From Fistulifera solaris (lineage: Eukaryota): 64,000 nt of DNA. The stretch is from contig AP026152.1 of NCBI GenBank assembly GCA_030295235.1, positions 558,001-622,000 on the forward strand, read 5' to 3'. A program made the translations under genes and the position numbers. The notes under the pieces are model-generated. The model made no database searches. It was not told the DNA's origin and worked only from the letters and a program-made list of their open reading frames with translations. Positions 26,735 through 64,000 of the stretch are shown piece after piece; the first letter of the stretch is position 1, and each line of letters opens with the position of its first letter.

Positions 26735-27673
26735 CTAAAAGAATGATGAATAGAGGATTGACTTTGGCGAGTCCTCCAGAGACTTTCGGCGGCGGCGGCG
26801 GCGTCTCTTCCGGATCGAGCGTGATGATTCTTTACGATCGCAAGGCGCGTGACGGTCGATCATTTGGAGTGTGACAAAGGGATAGAGAAAGCTTTGCACG
26901 TCGATCACGTGATCCGAGTTGCAGTCAATTTTTAATACCAGCGAAAGGAAATATCCAACGTATCCCAGTTTTTTGGCACTGAGTCGAAGGTTGTCGAGCG
27001 AATTCATAATGGCGCAGTAGGCCACAATCGACGGGGGAACGGTAACGAAGTGGTAATTGCTACACGCAAACTCGGTCTGTACCCGGGAAAGTTCGTGTAC
27101 ATCGTGCAATGTTTCCGCGTCGATCACGTCCTCTGGGACTGCCTCGAGAAGCAACCGCACGAATCCCATGGTCGTCGGCGGATTGACATGCCATTTCAGC
27201 GCATGCAGTAATTTTAATTCCATTTCTTCAATATCTTCTGGTTTCATCATTTCGGGCCCGAAACCGGCAAATACTGATGTATCGAGAGCAGTCTCTTCGT
27301 GAATTTTGATTGCTGTGTACAAGAAGGTCATGAAGAGTAATTGAAAGTCCATGCGATTCCGCCGGGGGCGGGTTCCTGCAGGTGTTGCAAGATACCGATC
27401 GACATAGGACGCCGCTATTTCGACAGTTTCTCGACTATAACCGCAGAAATCGACGACATTGTTGCACCATACGACCATTTTCTCGCGGCAATCGGAATTC
27501 ACGTCGCACGTCGCGTGTTGTGGAGTGTGTGGTGATTGGGGTGGCTCGCTATTTTCCAATGCCAGCCAATCGCACCTCGCGTATACACCCGTCTCTTGAG
27601 CCCGCATAGAAGCTATTACTTCCAGGCGTTGCTCCATGGTTGGGTTGTTCATGCAATGGTTATTGTCGACCAT
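26735..27673 (-). CDS. Cyclin, diatom-specific cyclin (dsCYC)-type
   Basis: CREKMVVWC...RETVEIAASYVDRYL...FQLLFMTFLYTAIKIHE...IEEMELKLLHALKWHVNPPT cyclin box. Confidence 0.9.
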   Translation of the reverse strand: MVDNNHCMNNPTMEQRLEVIASMRAQETGVYARCDWLALENSEPPQSPHTPQHATCDVNSDCREKMVVWCNNVVDFCGYSRETVEIAASYVDRYLATPAGTRPRRNRMDFQLLFMTFLYTAIKIHEETALDTSVFAGFGPEMMKPEDIEEMELKLLHALKWHVNPPTTMGFVRLLLEAVPEDVIDAETLHDVHELSRVQTEFACSNYHFVTVPPSIVAYCAIMNSLDNLRLSAKKLGYVGYFLSLVLKIDCNSDHVIDVQSFLYPFVTLQMIDRHAPCDRKESSRSIRKRRRRRRRKSLEDSPKSILYSSFF

Positions 27674-29042
27674 GGTTTCCCGTCGCGTCAAATGAAGAAT
27701 GTTTCATTACGTCTTGGTGGAGCACACTTCCGTGATTTCTTGGGGGCTTTTTACCCTTTGGCGCGTTCGAAGATGCGAAATGAGTAGTATCTTGTGAAAA
27801 GTAGGGCTCCGTCTCGCTTCAGCCATAAGTAAATCAGCGCATCGAACTCAGATTTAGTAAGATCTTAAGACTGAACAGGTCATTATAGTTTGCAATATCC
27901 CTTACGATGTAGAACGGAACGCAAGGGCTTATTAAATCCTGTAAATGTTAGGTCCTGCAAGCCTACACGGCAAAGGAGCGTCCGACAATCGGGATTGGAT
28001 TACAACTGTGTCCTCCGCTTGGTCCACGACAGAAATGTCATAGTGACGCCGACTCCATCAGTCACGTGTCATGTCTCATTCACTTAAGCCTTGTTGAGCG
28101 CCACTCCCTGCTCTCACAAAAATTTTGCATTATTTCGAAACCGGCTTTGGCAGGATGCGATGCGATGACACAAATCCCTGCATAAGAAGTTCTTTTGATG
28201 AGGCTTAATGTTTTAAATCGATTGAGTTTCAGGGATGAGGGCGGAATGGCCACAATAAATTCGATGAATCATCGATCGCATGTCATAACCTTGCTGCTGT
28301 AGTTCTGCACACGATATCATAATAAATGCGTTCGCCTCACATTATCGACTAATGTCGAACTGAGGTCAGCGACACTCGCAAAAGAGATTGATTGAGCTTG
28401 GAGAGTTGGCGGAGTTCTTGTAGATTCAGCCTGAACTCTCGCTCACACGCTGCAAAGCTGGTTGACACCTTGTTATTTTCGCGTTGGTTTGGCAAGGGAT
28501 CGACCAGCACACTGAAAATTTCTGGGTTAAAACCCATTCAAGCTATGAGGTGTCCCCACAATAAACTTTTTTGTCGAGTCAAATTGACGTCGGTTGAAAT
28601 GTCGATCAGTCATATTAGCGTTCGCCGTAGCACAGCTTCTTCTCAGCTTTCGGTCAAAAAAAGTCGTTCATTTAATCACAATCCAGCGTTGGCGAGGAAA
28701 GAATGATCTTAATGAGATCATGCCTCCAGTCTGACTGAAAGTTCGTGGGGAGGGCAAAAACTGAGTAAAAGCGCTACCGCTTTATTTGAAGAGTACATGT
28801 GAAAAATCGACAAAGACATGTATCATACAATGGTTTCTCAATCGCAAGGATGAAGGTGGATCTGCGAAAAATCACTCAGCTGAATAGCAGCAAGAAAAGA
28901 TGGTCCGAAAGTGCTAAGACGATGACCAAACTCGCACAGAAACACACAAAAGATAGATCTCGAAACGTTAGAATGCTGCAGTTCATTGCTTGCGTTTCCT
29001 TTCCGATTCGTCTCTAAAAAATGGCTTTCTTTCACTCATTGT

Positions 29043-29480
29043 CTAAACTTCATCATCCTCATCCCCGTCGTCTTCATCATCGTCGTCATCGTCGTCGTAA
29101 TTTTCTAAATCGCAGACAGAGTCTTCTTCTTCGTCTGATTCTTCTTGTTCGCTTTCGTCTGTGTCTTCGAACCCAAACACGTTACGGTCGCCATCAATCG
29201 ATTCGTCGTCGTCGTCTTCCGAATCGTCGTCATCGAAATCGTCACAATCGTAGTCGTCTTCATCTAAAAGGCCTTCATATAAATCTTCTTCGTCTTCATC
29301 CGTGTCGTCCTCGTCCATGTCATCGTCGTCACTTTCATCAGAGACATCGTCCTCCTCAAAGAGACGACAGGTTTCTACAATACGCTCCTGGACACACTGC
29401 TTTTGCGTTGACGATTCATTTGTTCGCAAGGCAGTCCAAGAGCGGTACACTTCCGCGATAGAATCGAGGAGTGAGGACAT
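29043..29480 (-). pseudogene. Array copy A: C-terminal remnant (coil + Asp/Glu tail) of the acidic-tail family
   Basis: Begins abruptly at SLLDSIAEVYRSW...QKQCVQERIVETCRLFEEDDVSDES, homologous to the last third of copies B-F. Confidence 0.7.
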
Positions 29481-29754
29481 TTATCGGAGATTTACAAGCA
29501 AGATTAAAAAAACATTTTTAAATTTACTTCTAGACTAATAGTTTGACATCGTCTTTACGAAAGCGCTTTATTCCTTTGTTTAGAAGCGCTGTCTATAATT
29601 CATATTTCTTTTAAAAGACTTAGGCAGGATGAGTCACCACGTTGTCCATTCGAGGCTACAATCACACGATCTTTATTTGACTCAGTCACGCCCAGCTTTG
29701 TTAAAGCTGTACTAATACCTCACACTTAAGATCATTGTTTGCTCAATTAGCATC

Positions 29755-31352
29755 CTAGTCATCGTCAAACGAGCTTCCTTCAACCGAGTCGTCATCGTCT
29801 TCCTCGGATTCATCGTAATCTTCCCCGTATCTGATAACGAAAACACAGCCATCATCTGTGTCCTCGCCGGAGCTTTCATCCTCTGAGTCGAAATCGTCAT
29901 CGCTTCTATCGGAATCGTCGTCGTCTGAGTCATAGTCGTCATCGTCGCTTTCTTCAGAGTCATCGTCATCGGAGTCTTCGTCCGTGAAATCGTCTCCATA
30001 GAACAACATAAATACCGAACCGTCGTCCGAGCTGTCTTCATCAAAGTCTTCTTCGCTCTCATCAGAGACATCGTCGCCCTCCAGGCTAAGACAAACTTGT
30101 GTAATGTTTTCTTGAATAAGTTGCTTCTGTTTGGATAAAGAATCCCTTCGTAGTTCGGCCCAGGAACGGTATACTTCTGAAAGAGAACCGAGGAAAGACG
30201 ATGTGACATGGGAATTATCGTTCGTATTTGTCGGATTGCAGTGATAGGTTGACAAGACTGCCGCTTTTTCCAGGTTTTTCGATACATGGTCTAAGATCGA
30301 CATGTCTCTATCAATTTCTAACTCATTCATAACAAGTGGATATACCTGCTCGATGAATGGAACATTCAAAAGCTGGGGCAACCAGCAGTACGGCTTGGCT
30401 TGAACACATTGGGGGCAAACTTTGAGTATGAGAATGATCATTTCTTGCACCGGAGGGCGGTTGCAAGATCGAGCTAGCCATTGAATCGGCGTGGATCCAC
30501 CATATCCTTCTTTGAGGAGCAGATTAGGATGTTCGGATATGAGGAAATGAAGTATTTTAGTCATGTTTGGCGTGCATTCTTCTTTGTATTCATTTCTCGA
30601 GGAAAGTGAAGCGCAAAGATCATGCAAAACGGAATGTGTCCCCGAGCAAACTGCTTCTGGGTATTCTCGTGCCATCCAAATGAAAAAGTCCGCGTCAGGC
30701 ACCCTACGTCCTCTTAAAATTGCAGTTAGAGGGTGGGCGCCGCGAAGCTTTTCTCTTAGCCCTTGCGGGTAAACTTTGTAGAAGTTTTGAGCCGTTTCCA
30801 AATCACAGTAGCCATTCACGTATTCGCTCAACATTTCAAAATGCGGAGGAGCTTCTTGACATGCTTTATGCTGAAACACCCACGGATAGTGCTGAGCAAT
30901 CCATGGTAGCATTTTGCAGCCCCATTCTGTATCTACGAGCTCATGAATGATCAGAAAGACGTCGTCGTCGCTATTGTCGTCGTCTTCAACTTCGTCTTCA
31001 TCGTCATCGTCGTCATCGTCTTCCCCTTTCCACAGCAAACTGTGTGGATTCATTTTTATAAGAAACTGAATGGTCTCGTAGCTCACAGAACCGACATTGT
31101 CAATAAGAAGTTCGAGGAGCAGCAAATGGCCCGTCATGTCATCTTGAAAAGAGTGCGAGCGAATATGGGATGAGCCTTGACTTCTTTTCGTATCTTTCGA
31201 TGCAAAGCTGCGGCATCATCTTTTGGCGATTCGTGGTATATCTCGTCCCATTCGTAAACCTCCTTGCACAAGACACGGAACTTTGTTCGCAGCGTCGGTT
31301 TTAATTCCGATTCGAAGATCGGCTGTTTGAAATCGGGTACTTCGTAGGACAT
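29755..31352 (-). CDS. Array copy B: degenerate ankyrin-like protein with long Asp/Glu-rich tail; frameshift ~31137
   Basis: Starts MSYEVPDF; shares ETIQFLI.MNPH, YPWVFQH, YPQGLRE, PDADFFIWMA, CTPNM, CNRP.VQEM and SEVYRSWA with its paralogues. Confidence 0.8.
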
Positions 31353-32001
31353 GATGATTATCTGTTTTGATTGATATGAAGTGAGCCGTAGTTTGCTCAA
31401 GAAGGAATAGTTGAAGATTTGAAATGAATGTCATTGCAAGAAAAGCGACGAGATCGTCGTGGCAACAAAAGAAAAAGCGCGCGCCCGCGCCACAAAACGC
31501 ACTCGTTCGTCCTTGCGCGCGCCAGTCTGTCCGGATGTACGGGCCCAATGTTGCTAAGGTTAGGATGCTCGGACATCGTACTGCCATTCGCAATCAAACG
31601 TAATAGCTACGATGTAGCAGTGCCGAAAGAAGCTAGAAAAGCATAAGTAGCAATAGATGAAAGCAAGCAGCAATAAGAAACTAAAGTCAGAACGATACCA
31701 GGTAATCCGCATTCTTAGACCATTCTTTATTTCGACAGAAAGCTAGAAGGGTGGGATAGGTCTTGTATCAGAAGAAACTGTGTTTATGATTCTGTTTTAA
31801 AAGGATTCAGCCTTTTGTACCAATTCAATCACGTCCGCTTTGCACCTGTCTTGTCTTCCACATCGTCCCTTGAAACATCTTCAACCCTTTCAAAGAAATG
31901 CCGTTTCCTTCAGGACGCGATCAAAAGCTTCCTGCCGCCTCAACTTCGATTTGTCAACAAATTTACCCTTGACACCCCAAAAATCAAGCGCTGCCCTCCA
32001 T

Positions 32002-33320
32002 TCAGTCATCGTCTTCGTCGTCGAAAAGGTGGCTATCTTCGCTGTCTTCACTTTCGGTCTCTGCCTCCCAGTCGACTACATCTGCGCTTGCCTCAGAGAC
32101 GTCATCAGTTTCAAAACGACGACACATCTCCATTATTTGTTCTTGTAGACGCTTCCTTTGCTCATTGAGCTTTTTCACCTGCAAGTCCGCCCAGGAACAA
32201 AAGACCTCCGACACCGATTCAAGTAAAGAAACGTTTGCAACCGAACCGTTCCCTGTACTCTCGGAGGCAAAATGATTAGCCGGCGACACAATCACTTTTC
32301 TCACATTCGCTGATAAGTCGCCTAGTAGCGAGATTTCTTGGTCGATTTCCAACTCTTCAAGAACGAGGGGTTTGACCTCTAGGATAAACGCGAACGAAGA
32401 AAGATTAGTGCCATTCACCTGTTGCAGACATTCCGGGTACGCTTTCAACAGCAGAATAACCATTTCCTGAACCAAGGGTCGATGACATTGAGGCGCTAGC
32501 ATGTGGATTGGCAAATATCCGAATCCAGTGACAAGCTGGCGGACGGTATCCGGATGTTCCGAAATGAGGAAACGGCATATTCGCGCCATATTGGGTGTGC
32601 ACTTCGTTGAGGCCAGCAAGAAGCAAACAAACTGCAACACTGTAGGTACCTGTGTCAGTTCGAAATAAACTGCAGCTGGGTACTGTCTCGCCATCCAGAT
32701 GAAGAAATCGGCATCGGGCTCTTCCGTCCCTCTTAAACTTGCCGAGAGAGGATAGCCCACGGTTGATGATTCGTTTCTTTCCCGGAGTCCTTTTGGGTAT
32801 AACTCATAAAATCTTCGAACCGTTTCCAGTTCACATCGACCGGTTACGTAGGAACTCATCAATTCTAAATGAGGCGGAAATTGTTGACATGCTTCATGCT
32901 GGAAGACCCAAGGATAACGTTCCACAATCCAAAGAAGCCAATCGGAAGCCCAACCACTCCCCGCAAGAAAATGAAGAGGAGTAGCAACATCGTCAGATTG
33001 TCGGTGTACTAGTGCATGCGGATTCGCCTCGATGAGGAAGCGGATCGTCTCTTGACCCGCACTGCCGACTTTCTGACACACAATGTCTAACAACGTAAAG
33101 CCATTCAAAGTGACTTGGGCCAAGAGGGGATGAGCCTTGACTTCTTTTGCAAGCTTTGATGTAAATCTGCGATAGCCTTAGCGCGTATCGATTCCAGGTC
33201 CTCGTGTTTTTGATCCAGTTCGTACAGCTTAAACACCAACTCGACGAACGTTTCGTTCAGATCGGAGGACAACTCGGAATGGGGGATCGGCCGCGACGAC
33301 TCTGGTATTTCGTACGACAT
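32002..33320 (-). CDS. Array copy C, short acidic tail; frameshift ~33120
   Basis: Starts MSYEIPES; same conserved blocks as copies B, D and F. Confidence 0.8.
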
Positions 33321-33666
33321 GCTGACTTAAACCTCAAAGGTATAGTGAGTGATCAAAAGCTTATCATTATCACTCAATGCTGTTATTTTGTTTTTTGCAA
33401 CGCGGCTATTATTATTTTTGCGTATAAAGCTCCAAGTCGCCGTGACTGATGAATGAGCCGCCAGTCGTGGCAAAATTAAGCTACGCTAGATCGAACTCCG
33501 AAATTAGTAATAGTACCATGGGAGATGCAATATAAGCTCAAAACTATAGCTTCCAAACATCGATTGAACACGCGTTTCTAGTCAATCCTCGTCACGAATA
33601 TAGACGGCTGACGACGCATCACAATAACAGTATTATTACGACAACCTCGCTGTTTATTACTTGGTT

Positions 33667-35368
33667 TCATCGCTTGCGCTTCTTTCCGACGATCGTTTCG
33701 GACACGACATCATCACCAATCCGGTCTTCCTTGTCATTATCATTTTTGTCGGAAGCTCCGTTCTTTGCCTCCCCTAGCTAGGGTTGCGTGATCATCATTC
33801 ACATCAGTTTCTTCGATCGCACCGGCATTATCCTCGATCCTCGCTTTAATTACCAAACCATCATCCGATTCATGAGCCTCATTCCTCGCTATACTAAGCG
33901 CATCATCATCTGAGTCGTCGTCTGAGCTTTCTTCCGATGAGTCATCTTCATCCGAACTATCTTCAGATTCGTCGGAATCGTCGTAATCCCTTCTAAGAAA
34001 ACCCACTGAGTCGTCGTAGTCATCTGGATCGCTGTCATCGGAGCTTTCTCCTTCCGATGTTTCATCATCCGACAAGTCGTCATCTTCTGAAGAGGAATCG
34101 CTTTCGTCGGAACTTTCTTCATCGGAGGCGTCATCGTCACGGAAAAAGATACACGTCTCTTCAATATGTTCCTTGAGACATTGCTTCTGCGTTTTTAAGA
34201 GTTTTATCCGGAGACGGGCCCAGGATCGGTAGACTTCGTTTAATGAATTCAGAACGGACAAGGTTAAATCGGCACCTTCCGGTGTACTTGTGGAATGATA
34301 TGCCGATAAAATTGTCGCGTTTTTCATGTTTCGCAATACTTGGGCCAGCAATGACAGCTCACGATCGATTTCCACGTCTTGAAAAACCAGTGGTTGAATC
34401 TTTTGAATGAATGGAAATCCCGAAAGCTCAGGGCACCACGGTCTACCTTCGACTTGCATACATTGAGGGTATGCTTTCAACAAAAGAATGGCCATTTCCT
34501 GCACCAGGGGACGGTTACACGATTTCATCAACAAAGATATTGGCATCATATAGCCATCGATTTCAATTGCTAGATCCGGATGCTCCGAAATGAGAAAGCG
34601 ACAGATTCTGGCCATATTAGGCGTACATTTGTTCCTGTCCTCACTCTTTGATGCAAGTGAACGGCAAACCTCATGCAACACACTACGCGCCCGACTTTGG
34701 TCATAATACGCAGCTTTCGGATATTGCTTTGCCATCCAGATGAAAAAGTCCGCATCCGGTTCTCTCCATCCATGCAAACTAGCCGACAGGGGGTATCCCT
34801 TTGACGAAAATTTGTATCTTTCTCTAAGTCCTTGTGGGTATATCTCATAAAAATTCCGGACTGGTTCAAGATCCCATTGAGATGAAACATAGCATGCCAT
34901 CATTAAGAGATGGGGAGGGTTATGTTGACACTGTGAATGCCGAAAGATCCAAGGATAGCGTTGTGCAATCCACGGCATCAATTTGCAGCCCCATCCACTC
35001 GAAGCCAGACAATAAATCGGCGCCTGCAAACCGCTAGACCAAAGTAGTGCATGCGGGTTCGACTCGATAATCAATTGAATTGAATCGTAGCAAACGTCAC
35101 CGACATTTCTGCAGAAAACTTCCAAAAGGGAGTATTTTTGCATGTTCTTGAAAATCGTTTGAGCGAGGACAGGAAACTCCGCAAGTGTTTCTTTTACGCT
35201 TTGATGCAAAGACGCAGCAGCTTCCTTTAATAGATCATCATCATCGTTCTCATGTATTTCATACAACTCGTAGGCATCAAAAAACAAGACACGAAACTTC
35301 TGTTTCAAGTCCGAGGGAAGTTGCAAATCGAGAATGGGCTCCGGCGACTCGGGAATTTCGTACGACAT
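33667..35368 (-). CDS. Array copy D; frameshift ~33775, corrected end ...VVSETIVGKKRKR*
   Basis: Starts MSYEIPES; same blocks. An alternative frame at 33775-33667 reads GEAKNGASDKNDNDKEDRIGDDVVSETIVGKKRKR*, matching copy F's end. Confidence 0.8.
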
Positions 35369-35639
35369 TATTCGTGGCTTCTGTTCGCACCGGAATGGGG
35401 TATTTTCAATTAAAGGTGTTAGAAAGCAAATGAAAACAAGAAGCAAAGTGGTGTCTGGATAAAGAATAGTCTCTAGGAGGATATACCAGGTAATGCCAAA
35501 GATTGCATCGCAATAACAGTCGTTTTTCCTCCCGCGTACCTGGTTATCCTGGCGAAGGGCGAATAAGGACGTTAACGTTATGCCTCCAGTACAAGATTAT
35601 ACCTAGCGTCTACGACGAGGCAGAATTTTAACGCCGTTG

Positions 35640-35930
35640 CTAAAATCAGTGTTTGCGATCAAACAGAAATTATGCGGCAGTTCCAGCAATTCTGGAAGAA
35701 TCGGTGTTTGCGATCAAACAGAAATTCTGCGGCCGTTCCAGAAATTCTGGAAGACATCGGTGTCTCCGATCAAACCGAAAACCGAAATACTGCGGCAGTT
35801 CCAGTAAGTCTGGAATCGGTGTCTGTACTTTGTAATCAAACAGAAATTCTGCGGCAGTTCCAGAAATTCTGGAATCGGTACCTGCGATCAAACAGAAATT
35901 CTGCGGCAGTTCCAGATATTCTGGAACGAT
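35640..35930. repeat. Palindromic minisatellite array, ~52-55 bp unit, about 5 copies; related to 24605-25340
   Basis: Unit gcgatcaaacagaaattctgcggcagttccagaaattctggaatcggtg. Confidence 0.9.
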
Positions 35931-36899
35931 CAAAAATCAAGGATTGAGATACCTATCTACAGATAATAATGTAGTAGGTCTAATGATTGAAGGCATTGGC
36001 TAATAATAAAAACTTTAGACACTCTAAGTCGACGAACGCATATCTCAGAACACAACCGGATGGGAAAGCCCTATCGCTCGCGATATTTTGAGTGGGAAGA
36101 TATGTCATCTCTAGAAAGACAAGGAAGTCTTCACCATGGCTTTAAATTCGCAGCTCGTTTTGGTCTATATTCATTCCCAAATCCAGGCACCTTCTTCCAA
36201 TGGCGTTGCCACTCATTCATGCTTAGTCCTGTTTATGTTCGACTACTATGATAACGTTGACCGTGGAGGAAATCGTCTCGTTCATTCCGTCTTGTACCCT
36301 AAATTTATTCAACATCCATTCCGGCAACAAGATCGCCATGAACAGCTTCATTTCTTAACGATGGTCATTTACTCCTCACCTTCCAACGGAGTAGGAGTCG
36401 ATTTAAGGAGACAGCAACTATTCGCATTGCTCATAAGGAACACGCTGCGTCGGTCCGGGAATGCCACAAGTTTTTCGTTTACCCTTTGATACAAGGTCGA
36501 GGCACCTTCTTAAAACTTTTCCTCGGTTAATTTCACGTCGTACCCGCCGAAACGCAAAACTTGCGTGCCATGGTGATGGGAACTTAGCACAACGAAAGCA
36601 GAGTAGAGCGACGCTGATGGAATTTCGTTTCACATGTTGGAATCCGGTAATTTACTTGACGCATCGCTGCTTTTGTGAAGAGTACTTCGCTTGCGTCCGA
36701 AATTCATTTCCGACTCATTGCTGGAAATGCCGTCATTCTCTCCTCACCCAAACATTGGCTAGCATGACACGCTCTTCGTTCAAGCATTTTCATTCTTACC
36801 AATACTATTGGCATGCACGCTCTTCGTTCAAGCATCTTCATTGAAACTTTCGCGTGGCTAAGTGCATAAGTCAGATCAAATCTGAGTCGTTCATCCAAG

Positions 36900-37860
36900 T
36901 CAAGCCAATCATCGTCCTCGACGGTAGCAAGTATGTTCGTCCCGATCGCAAAGTGACTCGCTGCCGTGTCTTTTCATTCGGACAACAGTTATCATCCAAA
37001 AATTTTTCATCCGACTCGCTGGTGTGTTCCTTGAGTGTCGTCGGAATTTGACCAGGAACGGTAGACTTCTGCAATGGAGCTAAGCAGACGACAGTGTGAA
37101 ACGGAATTGTTCGGTTTGACCACAAAAGAATTCTTTGTCGCCGATAAGATAGCAATTTTCGCCAGAGTTTTCGAAAGTTTTGGTTTAGCAACGACAAGTC
37201 TCAATCGTGTTCAAATTCTCGAATAACCAGTGGATGGACTCGCTGGATAAAAGGGGCGGTCGAAAGCTCGAGGAATTAACTGGCTAGCCTTGACGTTTAT
37301 ACGCTCGGGATATTCTTTCAAGAAACGAACAGCGATTTCCTGCACCAGAGGCCGGTTGCAACATCTGACTAACCAGTGAATCGGCAAGACACCGTCAGGA
37401 CCTTTTGTTCGGACTAAATCAGCATGTTCGGAAGTAAAGAAACGGCAGATCTTTGTCGCATTTGGCGTATAATGACTGTATCAGTCATTTAAGTTTCCTC
37501 GCGGAAAGTGAGCTACAAACGGCATGCAACATAGTATGCTCGGCATCGTGGTCAATACGGACTGCCTCTGGATATTGCTTCGCCATGCAGATAAAAAATC
37601 CACATCGGAGGCCCTTGGTCGTTGTAGACTTGCGGTTAAAGGGCAGCGTCCGTAACATGCTTTGATTTTTTCTTTAAGCCCTCGTGGATACAATTCATAG
37701 TCTTTTAATCGTATCCAGCTCACATCGATAGTAGATATAATGTTCCATCAAAGTCAAATGCGGCGGATACTCTTGGCAAAGTTGATGTTGGAAGACCCAA
37801 GGATAATGTTCTACAATCAAGGGAAGCAATTCGCATGCCCACATTCTACTGGAGTGTATT
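36900..37860 (-). pseudogene. Array copy E: 5'-truncated and multiply disrupted
   Basis: Homology begins immediately after copy F's stop (WACELLPLIVEHYPWVFQHQLCQEYPPHL), then YELYPRGLKE, RFLTSEH, RPLVQEIA and SIAEVYRSWS in shifting frames. Confidence 0.75.
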
Positions 37861-37864
37861 CGTT

Positions 37865-39610
37865 TCATCGCTTTCGTTTTTGCCCGCCTATACTTTCACG
37901 CGCAGAAACAACCTCTTGTTTGCAGTTATTACCTTCCCTAATTCCGTCATTATCGTCATCCTCCTTCCTATCGGCTACGTAAGCATAATCTTCACTCCGA
38001 CAATCATCTTCACTGTCATCGTCGGAGTCGTCACATCCTTCGCCCATCGGTCCAGAGGCGCTACCAGTATCTGTAACCCATTCGTCTTCCACTTCGTCGG
38101 AAAGACCCTCGCCAGCACTATCACGATCATCGTCGGAGTCGTCACATCCTTCGCTCATCGGTCCAGTAGCGCTACCAGTATCTGTAACCCATTCGTCTTC
38201 GACTTCGTCGGAAAGACCCTCCCCAACACTATAACGATCTTCATCCCATTCGTTTTCATCGTCTTCCTCGGACACATCCTCCTCGTCCTCGTCAGAGACA
38301 TCGTCGCATTCGAATAGACGACAAACATCCGCAATGCTCTCTTGGATGCGTTCTTTTGCGCCGATAAAACATTGCTTCGCAGGTTGGCCCAGGAACGGTA
38401 GACTTCCGCGAGGTCATTAAGCAATGACATGGTTGAAGTGTGGCGCACTGATGTGTTCGTAGAGTGTGAGTAATATGTCGATAAGACTGCCGCTTTGGTC
38501 AGACTTTGGGAAACCTGGGCAAGCAGCGACATGTCTTGATCGATTTCGACCTCTTTGTAACAAGCGGATACACTTGCTGGATGAATGGAACTTTTGTATG
38601 GTCGGGTAAAAAGTCAAAAGACTTTAGTCGCACACACTCGGGATACGATTTCAGTAAAGAATGACCATTTCTTGCACCAGGGGTCGGTTGCAAGAGTCGA
38701 CTAGACGGTGAATTGGGAGCATTTGGCCACTACCTCTTGTGCGGACTAGAAGAGGATGTTCGGAAATCAGGAAACGGCATATTTTGGCCGTGTTGTGTTT
38801 ACCTTCGCTTCGGGTCTCATTTCCGTCCCGAGGTTTTGAGGAAATACTATTGCAAACCAAATGCAACACGGAACAACTCTTATCAACTGCATCTGGATAT
38901 TGCTTCGCCATCCAAATGAAAAACTCCGCGTTGGGTTCCCCTGCTACTTCAAGACTTGCTTTCAGGGGATAGATCCCACTGCGTCTTTCTCGAAGTCCTT
39001 GCGGATAGAATTTGTAAAACTTCCAAATTGTTTCCAAGTCACATTTCCCTTTGTTAAAGAGCCTCATCATCTCAAAGTGCAATGGGTTTCTTTGACAAAA
39101 TCTATGCTGAAGCACCCACGGATAGCGTTCTGCAATCCATGTAACTATCTTGCAACTCCAACCAAATCGTGCGAGATTATGAATGGGCGGGTCAACATAG
39201 CGGTGGTAGTTCCAGTTGCCTTCATCGTCAGAGCTTTCATCGTCACCTGAATGATCCCCATACCGAACCTTCCACAATAGTGCATGCGGATTCATTTCAA
39301 TGAGAAACTGGATGGTCTCGTAGCATCGTTCGCCTACTTTCATGCGAAGAATTTCAATCAACGGCAACGATACCTCGCCTTCCAAAAGTCCAGTTCGAGC
39401 TAAGATTGGATTAGCCGCGACTTCTCTTCGTATGATTTGATCCAGCTGTGCGGCGGCAGCTATAAAATCATCGTTCATCAATCCGCGTTCCCGTAATATC
39501 CTGTTCACATCCACGGCTTCTCTCTGCAAGGCGCGAAACTTTGTCAGCATTGCCGGTGTCAATTCCGTTTCAAGGATCTGCTTTGGAGACTCTGAAATCT
39601 CGTGGCACAT
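37865..39610 (-). CDS. Array copy F; frameshifts ~38655, ~38553 and ~38355; ends GGQKRKR
   Basis: Starts MCHEISES; same blocks spread over four frames; the tail contains a 37 aa duplication. Confidence 0.7.
38018..38232. repeat. 111 bp tandem duplication within the acidic tail of copy F
   Basis: GEGLSDEVEDEWVTDTGSA(T/S)GPM(S/G)EGCDDSDDD occurs twice. Confidence 0.9.
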
Positions 39611-39996
39611 GTTGGTTGATTGTGTGAAAGTGTCGTTTGTCACCAAAGAGGGATAGAGCTATTGCTAAACAGAGTCTATTGACATCGCGTCAGCAATGCG
39701 AGGCAATGCAAAAAATAATAAAACACACAACAAAAACGCTTCCTGCCCGGACGACATGCAGACGCCCAAAGATTTTTAATGCGGTCTGTCCGGAGTACGG
39801 GTTTAACGAAATCTCATCCTCGCATTTATTCGCGCCCATTACGTATGGTACTGGTAGTTTTTTTTTTTTTTTAGTACTCCGTATTTACTTATTGGTATTA
39901 TTTTTTGCGGAAGACAACAATCATCAATCAACAACAAACTCTGTAAAGTCTAATATTCAATCAAACTAATTACAGCAGCCGCATCACAGATCAAGC

Positions 39997-40716
39997 ATGA
40001 CACTGACAGAATCTCAAGCTTTCACCGTCGGCAGTGATTGGGAACTCGTATCACAAGGTGCAGAAGCCAAGCTGTGGAAAATACCGGCCGGACCTTTGTT
40101 CGACGTACCTTGCATTGCCAAGGAACGTTTTTCGAAAGCATATCGACATCCGGCATTAGACGAGAAGTTGACAAAACAACGATGTCGAGCCGAATCTAGG
40201 ATTCTAACAAAATGCGTCGAAAAAGGAATCCCCGCGCCCCGAGTGCTAAGAACTGATGCACCAGTGCTGTATCTCGAATACATCGATGCTCCTACCGTTC
40301 GAGAATATCTCGAGACTGATTTATTAGTAACACTGACGGACGATACACAGGATTCTCCTCAGCACAACAAATTACAGCAACTTGCTGACGCATTCGGTCA
40401 AATGGTGGCCGCATTGCACAATTTGGGCATCGTACATGGCGATTTGACTACATCCAATGCAATGATTCGATTGCCAGAAATGACGTTAATAGCCATTGAC
40501 TTTGGTTTGGCGAAAAATACGACTTCCATGGAAGAACGGGCCGTCGATTTGTATGTACTCGAACGCGCTCTTAGTTCGACGCATCCGAAATTGCCTACTG
40601 ATTTTTGGACTCTTTTATTGAAGAGCTATCAAGCCGCGGCGGAGAAGGCAGAAGCGACATTGTCGCGGCTGGAACAGGTACAAATTCGTGGACGAAAACG
40701 AGAGTGCTTTGGATAA
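39997..40716 (+). CDS. BUD32: KEOPS complex kinase Bud32/PRPK
   Basis: SQGAEA, KERFSKAYRHPALD, VHGDLTTSN, IDFGL, EERAVDLYVLERA and C-terminal RGRKR. Confidence 0.95.
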   Translation: MTLTESQAFTVGSDWELVSQGAEAKLWKIPAGPLFDVPCIAKERFSKAYRHPALDEKLTKQRCRAESRILTKCVEKGIPAPRVLRTDAPVLYLEYIDAPTVREYLETDLLVTLTDDTQDSPQHNKLQQLADAFGQMVAALHNLGIVHGDLTTSNAMIRLPEMTLIAIDFGLAKNTTSMEERAVDLYVLERALSSTHPKLPTDFWTLLLKSYQAAAEKAEATLSRLEQVQIRGRKRECFG

Positions 40717-40808
40717 CGTTGAATTGTTCAAGCAAGACGTATGATAACGCAATCATTACGTATGATGTATTGTATACTTTGACAAAGAAAACGGTGATGA
40801 CACGAATG

Positions 40809-41666
40809 TTACGGCGACTCTTCTTGATACAAAACGGATCGTGGTGAAGAAATCGCACATTTTTTGGACGCCTTGGATCCCAAGTCGATGGACTTGTCGT
40901 CGTTGGAAGAAGAGTATGCTTTCTCCAACGTGTTGGTACTGGCCAGTACTAACGATTGTAGATCTTTTCTGAATGCGTCTTCCTTCTCGCAGTCAATCTC
41001 TAAAGAAAAGCGTAATGTTTGCTGTAGGGATACTATCATCGTTTGATCCATCCCCACTGTTTCTAGTGCATTGATAAAAGCACAATAAGCAGTGACATAC
41101 GACGCTACTGTCATCCACTTTTCATTCGGAGTAGAATGCACCACTTGATAATCTGCGAGCTCCAAAACAATTTGCTTGTCGTCTTCCACAGAAGGCAAAA
41201 GCTCCACAAATAATCGTAGATAAGATCGTCCTGTTGGTGGATTCATCCGCCATTGCAGAGCAGGGAGCAACTTGTATTCCATTTCTTCGATTTGCTCGAC
41301 TGTGTATTCGTCTTGACACAGTTGTGCAAAGGAGGAGGGTGGAACGGAAGCATATCCGTGTACCTTGATGGCCGTGTATATGCACGTCACACACAGCAAA
41401 CGAAAGGATGACAAATTTTGTGCCATGGAGGACCCGGCTGTCGAGCAGAGACATCGATCCAAGTATGACAAGGCAATTTCAGCAATCTCTGTAGGGTACT
41501 CGAGAATCTCTAACAAATTGAGCCACCAGATTACCATGGCACTCCGGTGATCAAAATTTATGTGAGCGTGGTCGGTGGGCGGAGATTTTTCATATGCCGA
41601 CTGCTCTTGCATCCTCAAAACCGAAATCCGGTCGAGGATGAGTTCGTTGGATGGTATGCACAACAT
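40809..41666 (-). CDS. Cyclin, dsCYC-type
   Basis: HRSAMVIWW...EIALSYLDR...FRLLCVTCIYTAIKVH...IEEMEYKLLPALQWRMNPPT. Confidence 0.9.
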   Translation of the reverse strand: MLCIPSNELILDRISVLRMQEQSAYEKSPPTDHAHINFDHRSAMVIWWLNLLEILEYPTEIAEIALSYLDRCLCSTAGSSMAQNLSSFRLLCVTCIYTAIKVHGYASVPPSSFAQLCQDEYTVEQIEEMEYKLLPALQWRMNPPTGRSYLRLFVELLPSVEDDKQIVLELADYQVVHSTPNEKWMTVASYVTAYCAFINALETVGMDQTMIVSLQQTLRFSLEIDCEKEDAFRKDLQSLVLASTNTLEKAYSSSNDDKSIDLGSKASKKCAISSPRSVLYQEESP

Positions 41667-42387
41667 GGTCTTCGGCTACTAATGATGCGAATCGTCGTTG
41701 AAAAATATAACAAGAATAAAGTCAACAAAGGACGACGAGGACGAGGGGAAAAACCGTCAGCATGTTTCCTTTGGAAGCAACATTTGCTTCCCAAGAAATT
41801 CTTTGGAATTCCCCTCCTTCTTGTGTTGCATCATCCTACTTTCGAAAGGACCCTAAAATAATCTGACGTCAATGACGGCGGATGACAAAAGACAAAAACC
41901 GAGTACACACGTTTTATCCTTGTTCGTCAAGTTACGGGACTGAAAATATATCGAGTCGGAGACGTGTACCCCCTGCTCTGTAAACGATACTAATCACATT
42001 TCAATAATTTACGAAATGCAATGGACACATTTCATTTATCTAACAGCAACATCATTAGCACTCATACGTTCAAACGAAACGTTAGAGCTTCATAACATCC
42101 AAGGTCGAAATAGTTCTAGGGAGAGCAGTCATTCATTGAGAACAGTTCATCTCAAGTTTTCCGGGACTGCAAATCAGTTGAGTCGTGATCTGGCTGAGCC
42201 TACTCTTTAGACAATACTTCGTACTAACTCGCCACACTTTTTAGCTGAAACCTTAATGTTACAGCATCATCTCGCAATAGAGGTGCGCGGGTATCGTCGC
42301 GTTGTTGCATTGCAAAATCATTACTGGCAATCGTGGGAGTCTATAAGCAACTATCAGGTACAAGTCAGTTTGCACTCATTTGCCAAG

Positions 42388-44179
42388 ATGATCGTTGCGA
42401 AAAGAAAGACCGTCACAAGGCTTTACTTGTGCTGCGCAGCAATCTATATCCATGTTGCCGCCGCTTTCGCTCCGTCGTCGGTTCGTTCTCTTCCCCGCAT
42501 TAACCCTCCCTCCACGCGGCACATGGTAAAATATGAAGATCTCATGGAGAAGTTACCGTCCGACACTGTCGTCGATGTAGTCGATGCCATGCCAGAGAAG
42601 CGCGTTGTAGCATCCGACGTGGCCGCCCGAGCCGGTGTATCACTTTCTCAAGCAAGAAAGGATCTAGTAGCGTTGGCATCTTTATCGCAGGGAGACATTG
42701 CCGTCGATAAAGACGGAGAACTCATTTACCAATTTCCACCGAATCTCAAGGCAACGTTAGCCAGTAACTCGGCCAAATACAAAGCCATGGCGACGCTACG
42801 TAAGGCCTGGCCGAGTATATTCTGGTTTCTGCGAGCTTCCTTCGGTGTTACACTGTTGGCTTCGGTTTTTGCTATTTTCAGTACCATCTTTTTCTTGCAA
42901 AGTAGTAACAGTCGCAGTGATGATGACCGTGATGACCGAAGAGGCGGTTCGATGAGCTTTGGGGGCTCGTATATGTGGGGTCCGAGTCCGTTTGACTTCT
43001 TATACTGGAATCGTCCTTATGGATACTACGCCAATCCTTATCAAAGGCCCGATGAAATGGGATTTCTGCCATCGGTATTTAGCTACGTCTTTGGAGACGG
43101 TAATCCCAACGAGAAAATTGAAGAAAAGCGTCTCGCGTTGGCCGCCAACATGATTCGAGCGAACAATGGGGCTGTCACGGCGGAACAGCTGGCTCCCTAT
43201 TGTGATGATGCCCCGATCCGTCTGAATACATGAAAGCCACCTATGTGGATGAGGTACGTTCAGTGATTATTTATCATCTCTTTGTGTTTGACATTAAGTG
43301 CCTCACGCCTTCGTTTATTACACAGAGTTTCGTACTTCCGATCGTAACAGCGCTGGGCGGCGAAGCACAAGTTATGGAAGACGGTGAAATCGTTTACACA
43401 TTCCCGGAACTGCAGACTTCTGCCACCAAAGTTTCGGAAACGACATCAATGGTGAAACTAGAGAAAGTAGAAGAATCGTTGCTGTTGCAGCGCGCCGGTT
43501 TGCCTTCGAGTGCCACGTCCCGTCAAATTCAAAGTTTTTTGAATTGGAATGGCATATCCACAGCTGGTGCAATCGAACGAGACGATTTAATCCGGATTTT
43601 ACGTCGGGCGTTGCCTCCGCCGTCCGATTCGGAGAAAGCTTTGTTGGAAGATGCCGCTGCGGACAGTCAAACGGATGTGTTGACAGAGCGTCGATTGAAA
43701 TTCAGTGTTGCTACGGACGTGAACAAATTTCTTGCCGGAGGACTGGGTGTGGTCAATCTGGGAGGCGCTCTCTACCTGGGCAATTTGTTAGGGCAGTATG
43801 CGTTGTATGGCGTCCGATTGCCTTCTTACATGGGAGTTGTGCAATCCTTTTATCCTTTGTTGCTCTTGTACGCTGTTTTATTCAATGTGATTCCGTTGGT
43901 GAGGAATGTGTATAATCAACAAGAAAATGCGAAAATTGAGAAGCGCAACGGTGTCCGTAGGAAATGGAGAGACGCGCTGAAGAATAATTCTTTCACACGC
44001 AAGTTAAAGGCTGCCGCCAAAATGGGTACGCGCTTGAAACAATTGGGCGCCAACCCTGACGAAATTGTATTTGATACAAGGAAGCCCATTGAAGAAATCA
44101 AAAACGAAAGATAGATTTAGAACTCAAAGAATTTGACAAGTTGTTGCAAGAGGACGAGTCGAAAGATAGTTTTCAATGA
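42388..44179 (+). CDS. Conserved plastid-targeted membrane protein (plant At5g03900/cyanobacterial-like)
   Basis: AAA-FAP presequence; DVAARAGVSL, GELIYQFP, SVFSYVFGDGNPN, GAVTAEQLAPY, GEIVYTFPELQ and GLGVVNLGGA. Intron ~43253-43325; frameshifts ~43215 and ~44105. Confidence 0.75.
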
Positions 44180-61737: not shown

Positions 61738-64000
61738 TTAGTTTACTTGCGCAATACCCAACTGCGCAACGATAGCATCGTAACGCTGCTGGCTCGGCAT
61801 ACCATTCTCAAGAGATACTAGCGCAGGAGGTAGTCGACGAAAAGCATTCAAGAACGCCATGGCTGCCGAGCAATCTTCGCCTCCTACAGCACTATCCTCA
61901 TGAGTATGCATGATCTCTCCGTTGTTTCTCTTGCGAGGTCGGTATTCAAAGTTCTCCAACTCTTCGGCCTTACGCTTTGCATCCTCGATGACCACTGCTG
62001 GGACGTTCGCCATTTCGGCGACCTGGATACCAAAAGATTCCAAACAGGGACCGGGCTTCACCTGATACAAAAAAGTTAGCCCTTGTCGAGCTTTGTGGGC
62101 TGTCACGTGGCAGTTTTGAACAACGGCGTGGCTTTCCTCTAATGCTGTCAGCTCGTGGAAGTGAGTTGCAAAGACAGTGATACAACCAATTTTGTCAATC
62201 AGATATTCGGAGATCGCACGCGCCAAACCATAGCCGTCGAACGTACTGGTACCACGGCCCAACTCGTCGATGATAATCAGGCTTCGCTTCGAAGCAATAC
62301 GAAGGATGGAGGAAGCTTCGAGCATTTCCGCCATGAATGTGGAAATACCGCGTTCTTGCAAATCACCGGCTCCCACTCGAGCCAATATGTGATGGCAAAT
62401 ATTGATCTTTGCCGACGAACATGGAACAAATGAGCCAATCTGTGCCATAGTCACGATGGCGCCAAGAGCGCGAATATAAGTTGACTTTCCACCCACTTGA
62501 AGTCGCGAAGAATGTGTGAGATGGCTTCTGAATATTTAGAGAAACGGTTGTACTTACTGTTCGGCCCGGTCACGATTAGAAAGTTGGATTTGTCAAGCAC
62601 CAGATTGACATCGTTGGGAATAAATTCAACATTTTCCTGAAGTTCTACACAGGGATGTCGCGCCGCCTTTAGTTCAATACCACCACCCTCTTCAAGATCG
62701 GTCAACTGGGGTCGACAATATCCATGGGGACTGTAAGCTGCGACGTTGGCCAAAGCGCACAAAACATCGAGGAGTGCCGTAGCGTCACTCGCTTGCTGCA
62801 GAACTTGCTGATACGTAGCGGCTACTTGCAAAGCATCAGCAGCAATTTGCGTCTGGTGGCGATTGTATTCGGCCAGTAAGTCTTGCTGCTGAACGGCCAA
62901 TTCGCGGAGACGTTTGGTACTAAAATAGACACCATTTTTTAACAAGCGATGGATCTGCACCTGTGGTAGTTGTTGCTGTAGAATCTTGGAATCATTCGTA
63001 TTCGGTAGTCGAAACTGCCAGCTTTCGCTATCGGACTCGAGCCGTACTGCCCCAGTGTTACCCGTAATACTCGCCCACTTATCGTTCATGTCATCGTGAC
63101 AAGCTTGAAGATCATTTTGTACATTCTTCAGTTCACGAGCAATATCTTCAAGCTCAGGTTGGTAGGAAGCTTGCACCAAGAAGTCGCGCGGCGCTGCGTC
63201 CAGATCGAGAACAGCGGTGGCTAACTCGACCGACTTGGATAAAGCCGACACTGCCTCTTTCAAGGGAGTCACAACTTTGTCTTCCAACAAAGGAGGAAGC
63301 GTGTCAGGGCATTCATTCATAAGTTGTTCCAGCAAAAGAGGCAACTTTTGCGCACTAATTATGTAGAGTTCATACAACGTCTTGAGGGCATCTTTGGTAC
63401 GAAAGGATGCGGTTTCTTCATTGCCATGTCCGTATTCAGCCAATGCCGCCGCCAGTTTACCCAGATCTTGACCTTTGAGCAGTCGCAATCCTTCCGAGCG
63501 TACCGCCTCCAACGCCACCGAATGATGCACCCAGTATTCCACAGCATCTTGTCGGGCCATCAGTGCTTCTAAATTGACTAAAGGCTGCCTTAGCCACATT
63601 TCCAGTAGCCGCTTCGCCATCGGTGTCAAACAGGGCTGACTCAACAAACTGGCAATGGAATTGTTGTGCGCCAAGCCACCCGTGTGCGCCGCCGCTCCTT
63701 CCCCTACGGGAGGCCACAAATGGATGGCTTGAGCAGCGGTCCGATCCAAGTACAGATGCGATTCCAAAACACCCGCTTGCAAGGTCTCTAATTCCACGTT
63801 GGTTTCATCCCACCATCCGTGGGCCTGCAAGAAAAACACCAAACCCTTGGAAACCGCCGAATTCCCGCTGACTTCCGTATCTCCGGCGACTTGCAAATAC
63901 TGTTCTTCCGGCAACATATCTTTCAACACGGCGGGCAAGCGTTCCAGAGCGTTGGAAGACGCGGACCACGATGAATGATACTGAATAATGTTTTCCGCGA
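61738..64000 (-). CDS. MSH2: DNA mismatch repair protein MSH2 (5' end outside the window)
   Basis: [26 protein letters not shown] (intron 62496-62557), [36 protein letters not shown] and SFGIQVA. Confidence 0.93.

Follow-up and report, generated by a model that had tools for sequence, protein, structure and literature searches.

Introduction

The canonical ankyrin repeat is a unit of 33 residues whose consensus contains a G-A-D-x-N loop. In I-kappa-B proteins, an N-terminal region precedes about six ankyrin units, and the C-terminal part is acidic and rich in Ser. Members of the ANP32 family carry a leucine-rich-repeat cap, a long acidic tail, and a KRKR nuclear signal. In diatoms, Siren2 of Seminavis robusta is described as an ankyrin-annotated family that occurs only in pennate species and has no signal peptide; its expression goes down on silicon depletion and reaches a night-time peak close to cell division (bioRxiv 10.1101/2020.11.23.393678). 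Two further reports describe dAnk1-3 of Thalassiosira pseudonana as ankyrin-repeat proteins that are cytosolic and belong to the valve silica deposition vesicle (PMC9894196, PMC13652820).

Here, we describe a tandem gene array in a stretch of 64,000 nucleotides of Fistulifera solaris DNA (the window). Compared by description, its products resemble dAnk1-3 and Siren2 in being diatom-restricted, probably soluble ankyrin-repeat proteins without targeting signals. The likeness to Siren2, also by description, extends to the lack of a signal peptide, the N-terminus being hydrophilic in the present family, and to named members that are all pennate, a taxonomic range that is a lower bound. Neither an acidic tail, nor a helical hairpin, nor a KRKR end is mentioned in the portions of the dAnk1-3 and Siren2 descriptions available.

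Organization of the array

The single uninterrupted open reading frame (33740-35446, minus strand) was compared with the window by tblastn. Eleven matching stretches were obtained, with E values down to 1e-106; all 11 lay on the minus strand within 29358-39610, and no family copy was detected with this query elsewhere in the 64 kb. The array (29043-39610, 10.6 kb) contains six minus-strand relatives, comprising four full-length genes, a C-terminal fragment, and a pseudogene (Table 1). The six same-strand copies proposed in the initial annotation were thus borne out, and the ordered blocks that it quoted were all found in the translations.

Table 1. Copies of the family in the array and the duplication in the tail of copy 6 (positions in the window)
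Feature	Position	Strand	Tail (residues)	Description
Copy 1 (c1)	29043..29480	-	102	C-terminal fragment only, 145-codon ORF; second hairpin helix (EVYRSW block) and tail with 66% Asp+Glu
Copy 2 (c2)	29755..31352	-	106	Full-length gene; acidic insert in the loop joining units 1 and 2
Copy 3 (c3)	32002..33320	-	34	Full-length gene; shortest tail, end DDEDDD
Copy 4 (c4)	33667..35368	-	155	Full-length gene; start MSYEIPES
Copy 5 (c5)	about 37010..37895	-		N-truncated, frameshifted pseudogene
Copy 6 (c6)	37865..39610	-	146	Full-length gene; start MCHEISES, end GGQKRKR
Tandem duplicate in c6 tail	38016..38239	-		111-bp (37-codon) unit x2, 93% identity

Both broken copies lie directly behind an intact copy. 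The fragment c1 is located 275 nt downstream of the c2 stop, and its closest paralogue at the DNA level is the corresponding part of c6 (69%). The pseudogene c5 lacks its first ~125 codons and begins about 25 nt past the c6 stop, with the YPWVFQH block; it contains at least three frame changes and stops, retains the EVYRSW block, and is devoid of an acidic tail. The placement of c1 and c5 fits unequal crossing-over or deletion inside the array, as such events would leave them. A high-copy satellite is located between c4 and c5.

Frame breaks and intactness of the copies

As the window reads, c2, c3, and c6 are split over at least two frames, and the tail of c4 ends in the wrong frame; c4 is the sole copy with its core in one ORF (33740-35368, with the stop at 33740). 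The N-terminal 70 codons of c2 are one frame off from the remainder, the frame of c3 breaks after about 59 codons, and c6 has three breaks. The window was compared with short-read contigs of runs X1, X2, and X3; X2 represents a close strain, with SNPs present, and the X1 contigs had no other letters on the long pieces listed and nine on one short piece. X1 and X2 both had one additional base behind 31146 (c2, A run), 33144 (c3, T run), and 38353, 38553, and 38655 (c6), and X1 and X3 had one base fewer at 33771 (c4). Each of these differing sites is a homopolymer run at a frame break, and removal of the base at 33771 produces the 155-residue tail of c4, which ends in GKKRKR. The public gene models P0005, P0003, P0001, and P0032 are 98-99% identical to c2, c3, c4, and c6, respectively, and their frames are uninterrupted. 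Because the contigs differ by one base at the breaks and the public models read through them, c2, c3, c4, and c6 are most likely intact, intronless genes. The count of four nearly full-length and two truncated copies in the initial annotation therefore holds, with the correction that the four are interrupted or misframed in the window itself. In contrast, X1 record 2 (35611-38087) covers c5 with no gaps and shows the same breaks, indicating that these are real and not assembly errors.

Structure of the encoded proteins

The AF2 model, calculated on an 83-sequence alignment (mean pLDDT 91.2, pTM 0.87), begins with an N-cap built from two helices (residues 19-64). Six ankyrin-like units follow, each about 39-48 residues long, and then a hairpin of ~90 residues, whose two long helices (319-358 and 366-408) run antiparallel and correspond to the coil recognized earlier. 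Each unit is made up of an inner helix with the P-L/I-H signature, an outer helix, and a short extra helix at a Y-P-x-A motif. In a structure search of 48,161 PDB representatives, the first 42 of the best 50 matches were ankyrin-repeat proteins by title (four titles being silent on fold), with Z 10.0-13.8 over model residues of about 18-335 and alignments of mostly 195-270 residues (95-314 over all 50 matches). These 42 included ankyrin-1, a DARPin, ASB7, p100, and RNase L. The remaining eight, tankyrase excepted, matched residues 313-414 only and were two-helix coiled-coil hairpins with Z of about 9.8. Z values up to about 13 are common for helical repeats, and the assignment of the fold therefore leans also on sequence evidence. 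Foldseek gave no match against the PDB at E<=1e-3, its first rows being designed armadillo repeats with an rmsd of about 16.

The family profile matched the PDB sequences of the NOMPC ankyrin repeats (E 1.2e-10), a designed ankyrin protein (2.9e-7), and espin (1e-5). Among the 83 relatives, Pfam models were matched at E<=0.01 by Ank_2 in 19, Ank in 13, Ank_4 in 10, Ank_3 in 8, and Ank_5 in 5, the strongest Ank_2 match reaching 1.4e-8; for the copies in the window, neither E<=0.01 nor E<=0.1 gave any match to a Pfam ankyrin model. Off-diagonal self-alignment of the profile revealed internal repeats over residues 62-313 (88-93% probability, E 3e-7 to 3e-6), with the unit consensus G..TpLH.aC / G..LPIH.L...Cnrp.VQe...lLLr.YPe. 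The structure search, the PDB profile search, and the Pfam hits in relatives show that the family consists of divergent members of the ankyrin-repeat superfamily. The ankyrin-like core suspected at the outset is thus supported, and the label "uncharacterised" is appropriate only below the level of the superfamily, which is a known one.

The proteins share with the superfamily the stacked helix-turn-helix solenoid (Z 10-13.8) and the G-x-T/L-P-L/I-H ... V..LL signature, which is found in units 2, 4, 5, and 6. They differ from it in the length of the unit (about 39-48 versus 33 residues), in the short third helix that stands at the Y-P-x-A motif in place of the canonical loop, and in the 90-residue helical hairpin and polyacidic tail that follow the stack. 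The longer unit represents variation within the repeat and gives no ground to exclude the ankyrin fold.

Acidic tail and C-terminal KRKR

Tail length was counted from the DDVSDE motif. The tails (34-155 residues, Table 1; Asp+Glu fraction 0.40-0.66) agree well with the hypervariable acidic tail of ~30 to over 150 residues in the initial annotation. They had pLDDT values of 37-50 and no secondary structure in the full-length AF2 model and are predicted to be intrinsically disordered; no tail motif was docked onto the ankyrin stack in that model. CK2-type S/T-x-x-D/E sites are abundant (1-16 CK2-like sites per tail), and aromatic residues stand amid the acidic ones. The 111-bp doubling in c6 is a recent expansion of the tail. 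At least eight Asp or Glu residues were present among the last 20 residues in 35 of 87 near-full-length relatives.

Hydropathy revealed neither a hydrophobic leader nor a membrane segment: the maximum 19-residue Kyte-Doolittle mean was 1.0-1.5, the N-terminus was hydrophilic, and the pI was 4.2-4.8, suggesting that the proteins are soluble. KRKR stands at the C-terminus of c4 and c6, two of the four intact copies, and of the F. solaris relative P0008; it was terminal in 4 of 169 family sequences. Its resemblance to a nuclear-import signal hints at a destination in the nucleus, and if it is read as such a signal, at least c4, c6, and P0008 would act there. Since the motif is confined to so few sequences, a nuclear role cannot be general.

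Divergence of the copies and range of the family

Amino acid identity between paralogues was 47-55%. Synonymous sites were saturated (pS 0.63-0.80), and dN was 0.39-0.45. For four of the six pairs, dS was computable, and dN/dS in these was 0.17-0.30. In DNA self-comparison, only the coding parts aligned across copies, the intergenic DNA being no longer alignable. Judged from sequence divergence, the copies are old, and together with one pseudogene and one fragment this supports the earlier picture of an old array that is still turning over. Identity between paralogues was highest in the ankyrin units (52-57%) and lower in the N-cap (30-42%) and tail (32-44%), and variation was concentrated in the length of the low-complexity tail, not in a binding surface.

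Of 1.84 billion cluster representatives, 159 matched the family at E<=1e-3. Named members came only from F. solaris, Cylindrotheca closterium, and Thalassiothrix antarctica, all pennate diatoms; most relatives are environmental sequences without a species name, so that this taxonomic range is a lower bound. No Thalassiosira protein appeared in 30 cluster look-ups, which is weak evidence on a possible orthology to dAnk1-3 (Tp23225, Tp5147, and Tp21058). No signalling or effector domain was found by Pfam in the window copies or the 83 relatives, and no fused forms were found among longer proteins, the latter being weak evidence.

Possible functions

The cluster is an old tandem set from a pennate-diatom family of divergent ankyrin-repeat proteins. 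We consider there to be about an even chance that these proteins serve as soluble adaptors with a polyanionic effector tail. The conserved ankyrin stack would dock one partner common to all paralogues, and the tail would be the effector part, binding basic ligands such as histones or other basic proteins; alternatively, it may serve in activation, as acidic regions do, or be PEST-like. Slippage and duplication would let the length of the tail drift. At least the long-tailed, KRKR-ended c4 and c6 may act in the nucleus, by analogy with acidic chaperones of the ANP32 type or with ankyrin co-regulators of the I-kappa-B/Bcl-3 type. The chromatin-interacting role raised in the initial annotation is hinted at solely by the polyacidic tail and by the KRKR with which two of the four intact copies end. 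As in ANP32, a small repeat-fold domain is followed by a long disordered Asp/Glu tail, and c4, c6, and P0008 end in a KRKR-type cluster; however, the folded part is an all-helical ankyrin stack and not a leucine-rich repeat, so the likeness is an analogy of design. Membership of the ANP32 family was rejected, the leucine-rich-repeat N-terminal domain being absent.

A cytoplasmic scaffold of silica cell-wall morphogenesis or late cell division, the same as or like Siren2 or dAnk, is an unlikely explanation. The stack would then bind the cytosolic tails of membrane proteins of the silica deposition vesicle, and the polyanionic tail would organize basic components. The present family is likewise soluble by prediction, ankyrin-type, and named only from pennate diatoms. 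Siren2 is described as a pennate-only, silicon-responsive family without a signal peptide (bioRxiv 10.1101/2020.11.23.393678), and knock-out of dAnk1-3 is reported to alter pore patterns (PMC9894196, PMC13652820). However, diatoms hold many ankyrin families and the likeness is by description only; dAnk2 and dAnk3 are said to be near-ubiquitous in diatoms, whereas the named members of the present family are all pennate, and the terminal KRKR of c4, c6, and P0008 points to the nucleus and not to a vesicle surface.

The adaptor reading also has to be weighed against an I-kappa-B-like inhibitor, in which the stack would mask a client, such as a transcription factor, and the tail, acidic and rich in Ser, would be a PEST-type, phosphorylation-controlled turnover signal. 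The architecture is similar: as in I-kappa-B and Bcl-3, a stack of about six ankyrin units has an N-terminal region before it and an acidic, Ser-rich region after it; many CK2-type sites are present in the tails, and I-kappa-B-alpha, I-kappa-B-beta, Bcl-3, p100, and I-kappa-B-zeta were among the structural matches (Z 11.2-13.4). All ankyrin proteins matched about equally well, however, so these rows are unspecific. No DSGxxS-type degron was found in c4 residues 1-80, and I-kappa-B lacks an equivalent of the 90-residue helical hairpin. To our knowledge, Rel-homology factors are not known in diatoms. We regard this possibility as quite improbable.

Even less probable is a diversifying recognition or defence family, as suggested initially, in which each paralogue would bind a different foreign or self ligand via variable ankyrin surfaces. 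Gene birth and death in a tandem array, restriction to one lineage, and deep divergence of the paralogues are compatible with it. However, conservation is highest in the ankyrin units and dN/dS is low, the opposite of what is expected of such a family; the variation lies in tail length, and neither signalling or effector domains nor, as weaker evidence, fused forms accompany the stack. Judged from these sequence comparisons, the well-kept ankyrin core is more in line with a conserved partner than with diversifying recognition.

That the copies belong to a mobile or selfish element as its ORFs, or are non-genes in decay, has a negligible chance despite their clustering and the neighbouring satellite, being contradicted by the lack of transposase, reverse-transcriptase, or integrase families by Pfam in all 83 members, the lack of terminal or flanking repeats around the units in self-comparison, the purifying selection, the confident globular fold, and relatives in transcriptome assemblies. 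No sequencing run recorded as RNA was found for the copies of the array. Three relatives, however, originated from MMETSP assemblies, two of them with named species, which indicates transcription of the family in at least these two species.

Organization of the Array

In the ORF listing for 27-42 kb of the window, a series of minus-strand ORFs carried the sequence blocks quoted in the initial annotation. When the uninterrupted ORF at 33740-35446 was compared with the whole window by tblastn, 11 matching stretches were obtained, all on the minus strand within 29358-39610 and with E values down to 1e-106, and no further copy was found outside these limits in the 64 kb. The individual copies (c1 to c6) were then delimited by three-frame reading and are shown in the table. 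All three analyses bear out the claim of six same-strand copies with common ordered blocks, and the array as first described is real, far beyond chance. Measured from the DDVSDE motif, the tails were 34, 102, 106, 146, and 155 residues long with an Asp+Glu content of 40-66%, in agreement with the variable acidic tails of about 30 to more than 150 aa noted initially. The positions of c1 and c5, directly behind intact copies, would be the expected leftover of unequal crossing-over or internal deletion.

Copies of the array and other features of the window
Feature	Position	Strand	Remarks
c1	29043-29480	-	C-terminal fragment; 275 nt past c2 stop
c2	29755-31352	-	Full length; first 60-70 codons in other frame in window
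c3	32002-33320	-	Full length; first 60-70 codons in other frame in window
c4	33667-35368	-	Full length; tail meets early stop in window
c5	~37010-37895	-	Broken; begins at YPWVFQH block, only ~25 nt past c6 stop
c6	37865-39610	-	Full length; split three times in window
Class I fumarate hydratase	801-2504	-	Pfam
HCO3- transporter family protein	3163-4950	-	Pfam
CLASP_N protein	13567-15951	-	Pfam
Cyclin	26735-27691	-	Pfam Cyclin_N, 3e-13
55-59 bp tandem repeat	35644-35926		Between c4 and c5
Small atypical protein kinase ORF	39997-40716	+	239 aa; directly beside c6
Cyclin	40809-41666	-	Pfam Cyclin_N, 7e-14
Adjacent ORFs	42256-43233 / 43230-44114	+ / +	4-nt overlap
MORN-repeat protein	52936-54756	+	Pfam
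MutS ORF pair	61738-62496 / 62451-63938	- / -	46-nt overlap, different frame

Frame Breaks in the Copies

Contigs of four public sequencing runs (X1, X2, X3, and X8) were compared with 28900-39750. X1 contained 97% of the sampled words, with no other letters on the long pieces listed and nine on one short piece. X2, a wetland metagenome, contained 78% of the sampled words with scattered SNPs, indicating a close but separate strain. Both X1 and X2 had one base more than the window behind 31146, 31812, 33144, 38353, 38553, and 38655, and the base at 33771 was missing from X1 and X3. All seven sites were runs of three to four identical bases, and six coincided with frame breaks, the exception being 31812, which is intergenic. 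Four public gene models from a 15.4 kb contig (P0005, P0003, P0001, and P0032) were 98-99% identical to c2, c3, c4, and c6, respectively, and uninterrupted at the breaks. After correction, each of these four copies formed one unbroken ORF, and the C-terminus of c4 read GKKRKR. The frame breaks in the window are thus mostly assembly errors, and homopolymer indels make four good genes look like pseudogene pieces in this assembly. The frame changes of c5 are genuine, since X1 covers this copy without gaps. At least seven homopolymer indels fell within 10.8 kb among the matches listed (14 further indel rows exist), so short-read polishing should precede any count of genes and pseudogenes, and the whole assembly probably needs it.

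Two further ORF pairs in the window each look like one gene that a short intron or an indel of one base has divided: one pair separates MutS domains III and IV from MutS domain V, and the other is the adjacent pair starting at 42256. X2 contained the locus at about 99% identity. Its pieces reached 3.6 kb (30 other letters in 3559) and had SNPs and small indels of their own, so a close strain lives in that wetland habitat. X3, for which the RNA kind is a guess, covered only 29580-30112, 31883-32202, 33676-34080, and 34253-34419, corresponding to the 3' parts of c2, c3, and c4. X8, labeled "METAGENOMIC RNA-Seq" and flagged as probably DNA, gave contigs of 151-231 nt on c4, c5, and c6. The coverage from these two runs was counted neither for nor against expression, and no run recorded as RNA was among those carrying the locus.

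Fold and Domain Layout

Pfam assigned the window copies to no family, and sub-threshold matches to SURF2, KBP_C, and mTERF were discarded as noise. AlphaFold2, run on an alignment of 83 relatives, gave an all-helical model (mean pLDDT 91.2, pTM 0.87) with cap helices at 19-40 and 44-64, six units at 81-305, each made of an inner, an outer, and a short third helix, and long antiparallel helices at 319-358 and 366-408; confidence was low past residue ~410. With Foldseek, no PDB entry passed E ≤ 1e-3, and the rows were a mixture: designed armadillo repeats and beta-catenin stood first (rmsd ~16), and the ankyrin rows had smaller rmsd values (6-8). An armadillo reading was dropped after profile and structure searches of the PDB and the Pfam matches of relatives.

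In a structure search of 48,161 PDB representatives, ankyrin proteins occupied rows 1-42 of the best 50 (four of the 42 have titles that leave the fold unnamed), and the other rows were mostly hairpin-only matches to generic two-helix coiled coils. The ankyrin rows scored Z 10.0-13.8, mostly with 195-270 residues aligned over model residues ~18-335, and because a Z of about 13 may reflect an arrangement that many helical repeats share, support from sequence was sought. The family profile matched ankyrin chains among PDB sequences at E values of 1.2e-10, 2.9e-7, 9e-7, and 1e-5, Pfam Ank_2 was detected at E ≤ 0.01 in 19 of the 83 relatives, and the profile aligned with itself off the diagonal at 88-93% probability. 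The unit consensus contained the signature G-x-T/L-P-L/I-H ... V..LL. A protein-language-model atlas, used as a lead only, placed the query beside a 165-member diatom cluster auto-named "Ankyrin family protein." From these profiles and models, we conclude that the family is a divergent ankyrin type with long units of ~39-48 residues; the ankyrin-like core proposed initially agrees with the PDB structure and profile searches, the Pfam matches in relatives, and the internal repeats.

In a second model, built from a full window ORF, the tail had a pLDDT of 37-50 and no secondary structure, and no tail motif docked on the core in the full-length model. The proteins lacked a hydrophobic leader or membrane segment and had a pI of 4.2-4.8. 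In layout, the proteins are soluble and join an ankyrin stack to a rigid hairpin of helices; the tail behind it is disordered, polyanionic, and variable in length through drift, and in some copies it closes with a basic, nuclear-import-like KRKR.

Evolution and Turnover

Core identity among the paralogues was 47-55%, with saturated synonymous differences (pS 0.63-0.80) and dN of 0.39-0.45. In the four of six paralogue pairs for which dS could be computed, dN/dS was 0.17-0.30, and the family is under purifying selection. The ankyrin units were best kept (52-57% identity), compared with 39-59% for the hairpin, 30-42% for the N-cap, and 32-44% for the tail. Only coding DNA could be aligned between copies (63-69%), and no 8-mer was common to at least three of the four upstream regions (with the c2 start placed 3 nt off), indicating that the duplications are ancient. 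The tails are still turning over, as seen from a doubled 111 bp unit in c6 (93% identity) and a 3-base insertion within the c1 tail in X2. The picture of an old array that continues to turn over therefore holds: synonymous sites are saturated, noncoding DNA is unalignable, and a unit within one tail has doubled.

In a quick maximum-likelihood tree, built from 35 rows picked by hand out of ~170 relatives, the four window copies fell into one loosely supported group (SH-aLRT 81-83) along with a Fistulifera clade; the tree did not resolve one-to-one orthology with Fistulifera copies or the order of duplication. Judging from their gene numbers (14H/L 219-227 and 6H/L 257-258), the named relatives in F. 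solaris may also lie in clusters.

Taxonomic Range and Tails of Relatives

In an exhaustive phmmer search, 1.84 billion cluster representatives yielded 159 matches at E ≤ 1e-3, of which 108 also passed 1e-10 and 58 passed 1e-30. Names were looked up for 30 of the 159 clusters, most relatives being environmental sequences without a species name, and all named members came from pennate diatoms: the raphid Fistulifera solaris and Cylindrotheca closterium and the araphid Thalassiothrix antarctica, the latter two from MMETSP transcriptome assemblies. A second search seeded with the profile contributed only two more proteins and left the list of named species unchanged. Proteins of 995-2840 residues included no fused forms of the family, which is weak evidence. 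Members were already public as hypothetical proteins, one from F. solaris being auto-named "Ankyrin repeat protein," and none of the named F. solaris proteins matched was near-identical to the window copies; in the literature on diatom and Fistulifera ankyrin families, we found no description of the family or array, and the F. solaris nanopore preprint does not contain the word "ankyrin." Within the ankyrin proteins, the family is set apart by units that are unusually long and have three helices, by the hairpin, and by the polyacidic tail, and it is so far confined to pennate diatoms.

Relatives with 380 or more residues numbered 87; 35 of them had at least eight Asp/Glu within the last 20 residues, and 14 of these 35 also carried an aromatic residue within the last six. 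CK2-type sites numbered 1-16 per tail. KRKR C-termini occurred in 4 of 169 sequences, namely, the c4 and c6 models, P0008 of F. solaris, and P0114.

Possible Function

The structural and evolutionary description of the family is very likely correct. A nuclear-adaptor mechanism, taken by itself, is a tentative proposal, and the two combined stand at about even chances. As the conserved part, the ankyrin stack would dock a partner common to all paralogues, and the tail would be the effector, either binding basic ligands or acting as an acidic activation or PEST-like region; KRKR would direct the long-tailed paralogues into the nucleus. Two near designs exist: ANP32, with a repeat domain, an acidic tail, and KRKR, and I-kappa-B/Bcl-3, with ankyrin repeats and an acidic C-terminus. 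The family resembles ANP32 in its tail and KRKR, whereas its fold is not LRR; it resembles I-kappa-B in joining ankyrin to an acidic C-terminus, but residues 1-80 of c4 hold no DSGxxS degron. It therefore falls outside both groups.

Chief among the alternatives is that the family works in the cytoplasm, either in building the silica cell wall or in late division. Siren2 of Seminavis robusta is described as pennate-only, without a signal peptide, annotated as ankyrin, silicon-responsive, and night-phased (bioRxiv 10.1101/2020.11.23.393678). The dAnk1-3 proteins of Thalassiosira pseudonana are described as ankyrin proteins of the cytosol located at the silica deposition vesicle (PMC9894196, PMC13652820). 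The present family may be related to either of these or work like them.

It is unlikely that the family is a pennate-diatom invention in which an ankyrin docking module is coupled to a tunable polyanion, in a Siren2 or an ANP32-type version. If the Siren2 version were true, this would be the first pennate-specific cytoplasmic factor in silica cell-wall morphogenesis, with acidic tails that would gather polycations on the surface of the vesicle (long-chain polyamines, basic silaffin-like proteins, or the carriers of these). If the ANP32-type version were true, the KRKR paralogues would be diatom counterparts of histone chaperones or acidic co-activators on an ankyrin rather than an LRR scaffold, and those without KRKR would be cytoplasmic forms of the same machine.

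The idea of a recognition or defence family, put forward in the initial annotation, fits the dynamics of the array; however, the conserved ankyrin surface and low dN/dS do not fit it. An origin as a mobile element or transposon ORF is contradicted by purifying selection, by self-comparison, in which only coding parts align, by the confident fold, and by Pfam, which found no transposon family among the 83 members.

Roughly half of the genes in diatoms are without an assigned function, and tandem families of repeat proteins that are restricted to one lineage recur among them. One such family can now be placed in the ankyrin superfamily with its parts defined (cap, six long units, helical hairpin, polyacidic tail, and optional KRKR). 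The main value lies in this defined, testable piece of the unknown diatom proteome and in the warning on homopolymer errors in this assembly.

Neighbourhood of the Array

The neighbours annotated by Pfam are ordinary, so the cluster lies in a normal gene-dense chromosome. The array is flanked by two cyclin genes on its own strand, a paralogous pair with 31% identity (E 6e-43). The kinase ORF beside c6 had Kdo/RIO1/Pkinase matches, and we take it to be Bud32/PRPK-like from its size and matches. Rfam gave no match over 28000-41000. The tandem repeat between c4 and c5 consists of about five copies of its unit, with the palindromic words CAGAAATTCTG and CCAGAAATTCTGG, and within the window the unit occurred only there (4 matches, 0 expected by chance). 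Contig depth over the repeat was ~1839 in X1, compared with ~18 around it, and ~700 in X2, and many contigs branched off, indicating a satellite or small repeat element that is dispersed in high copy number.
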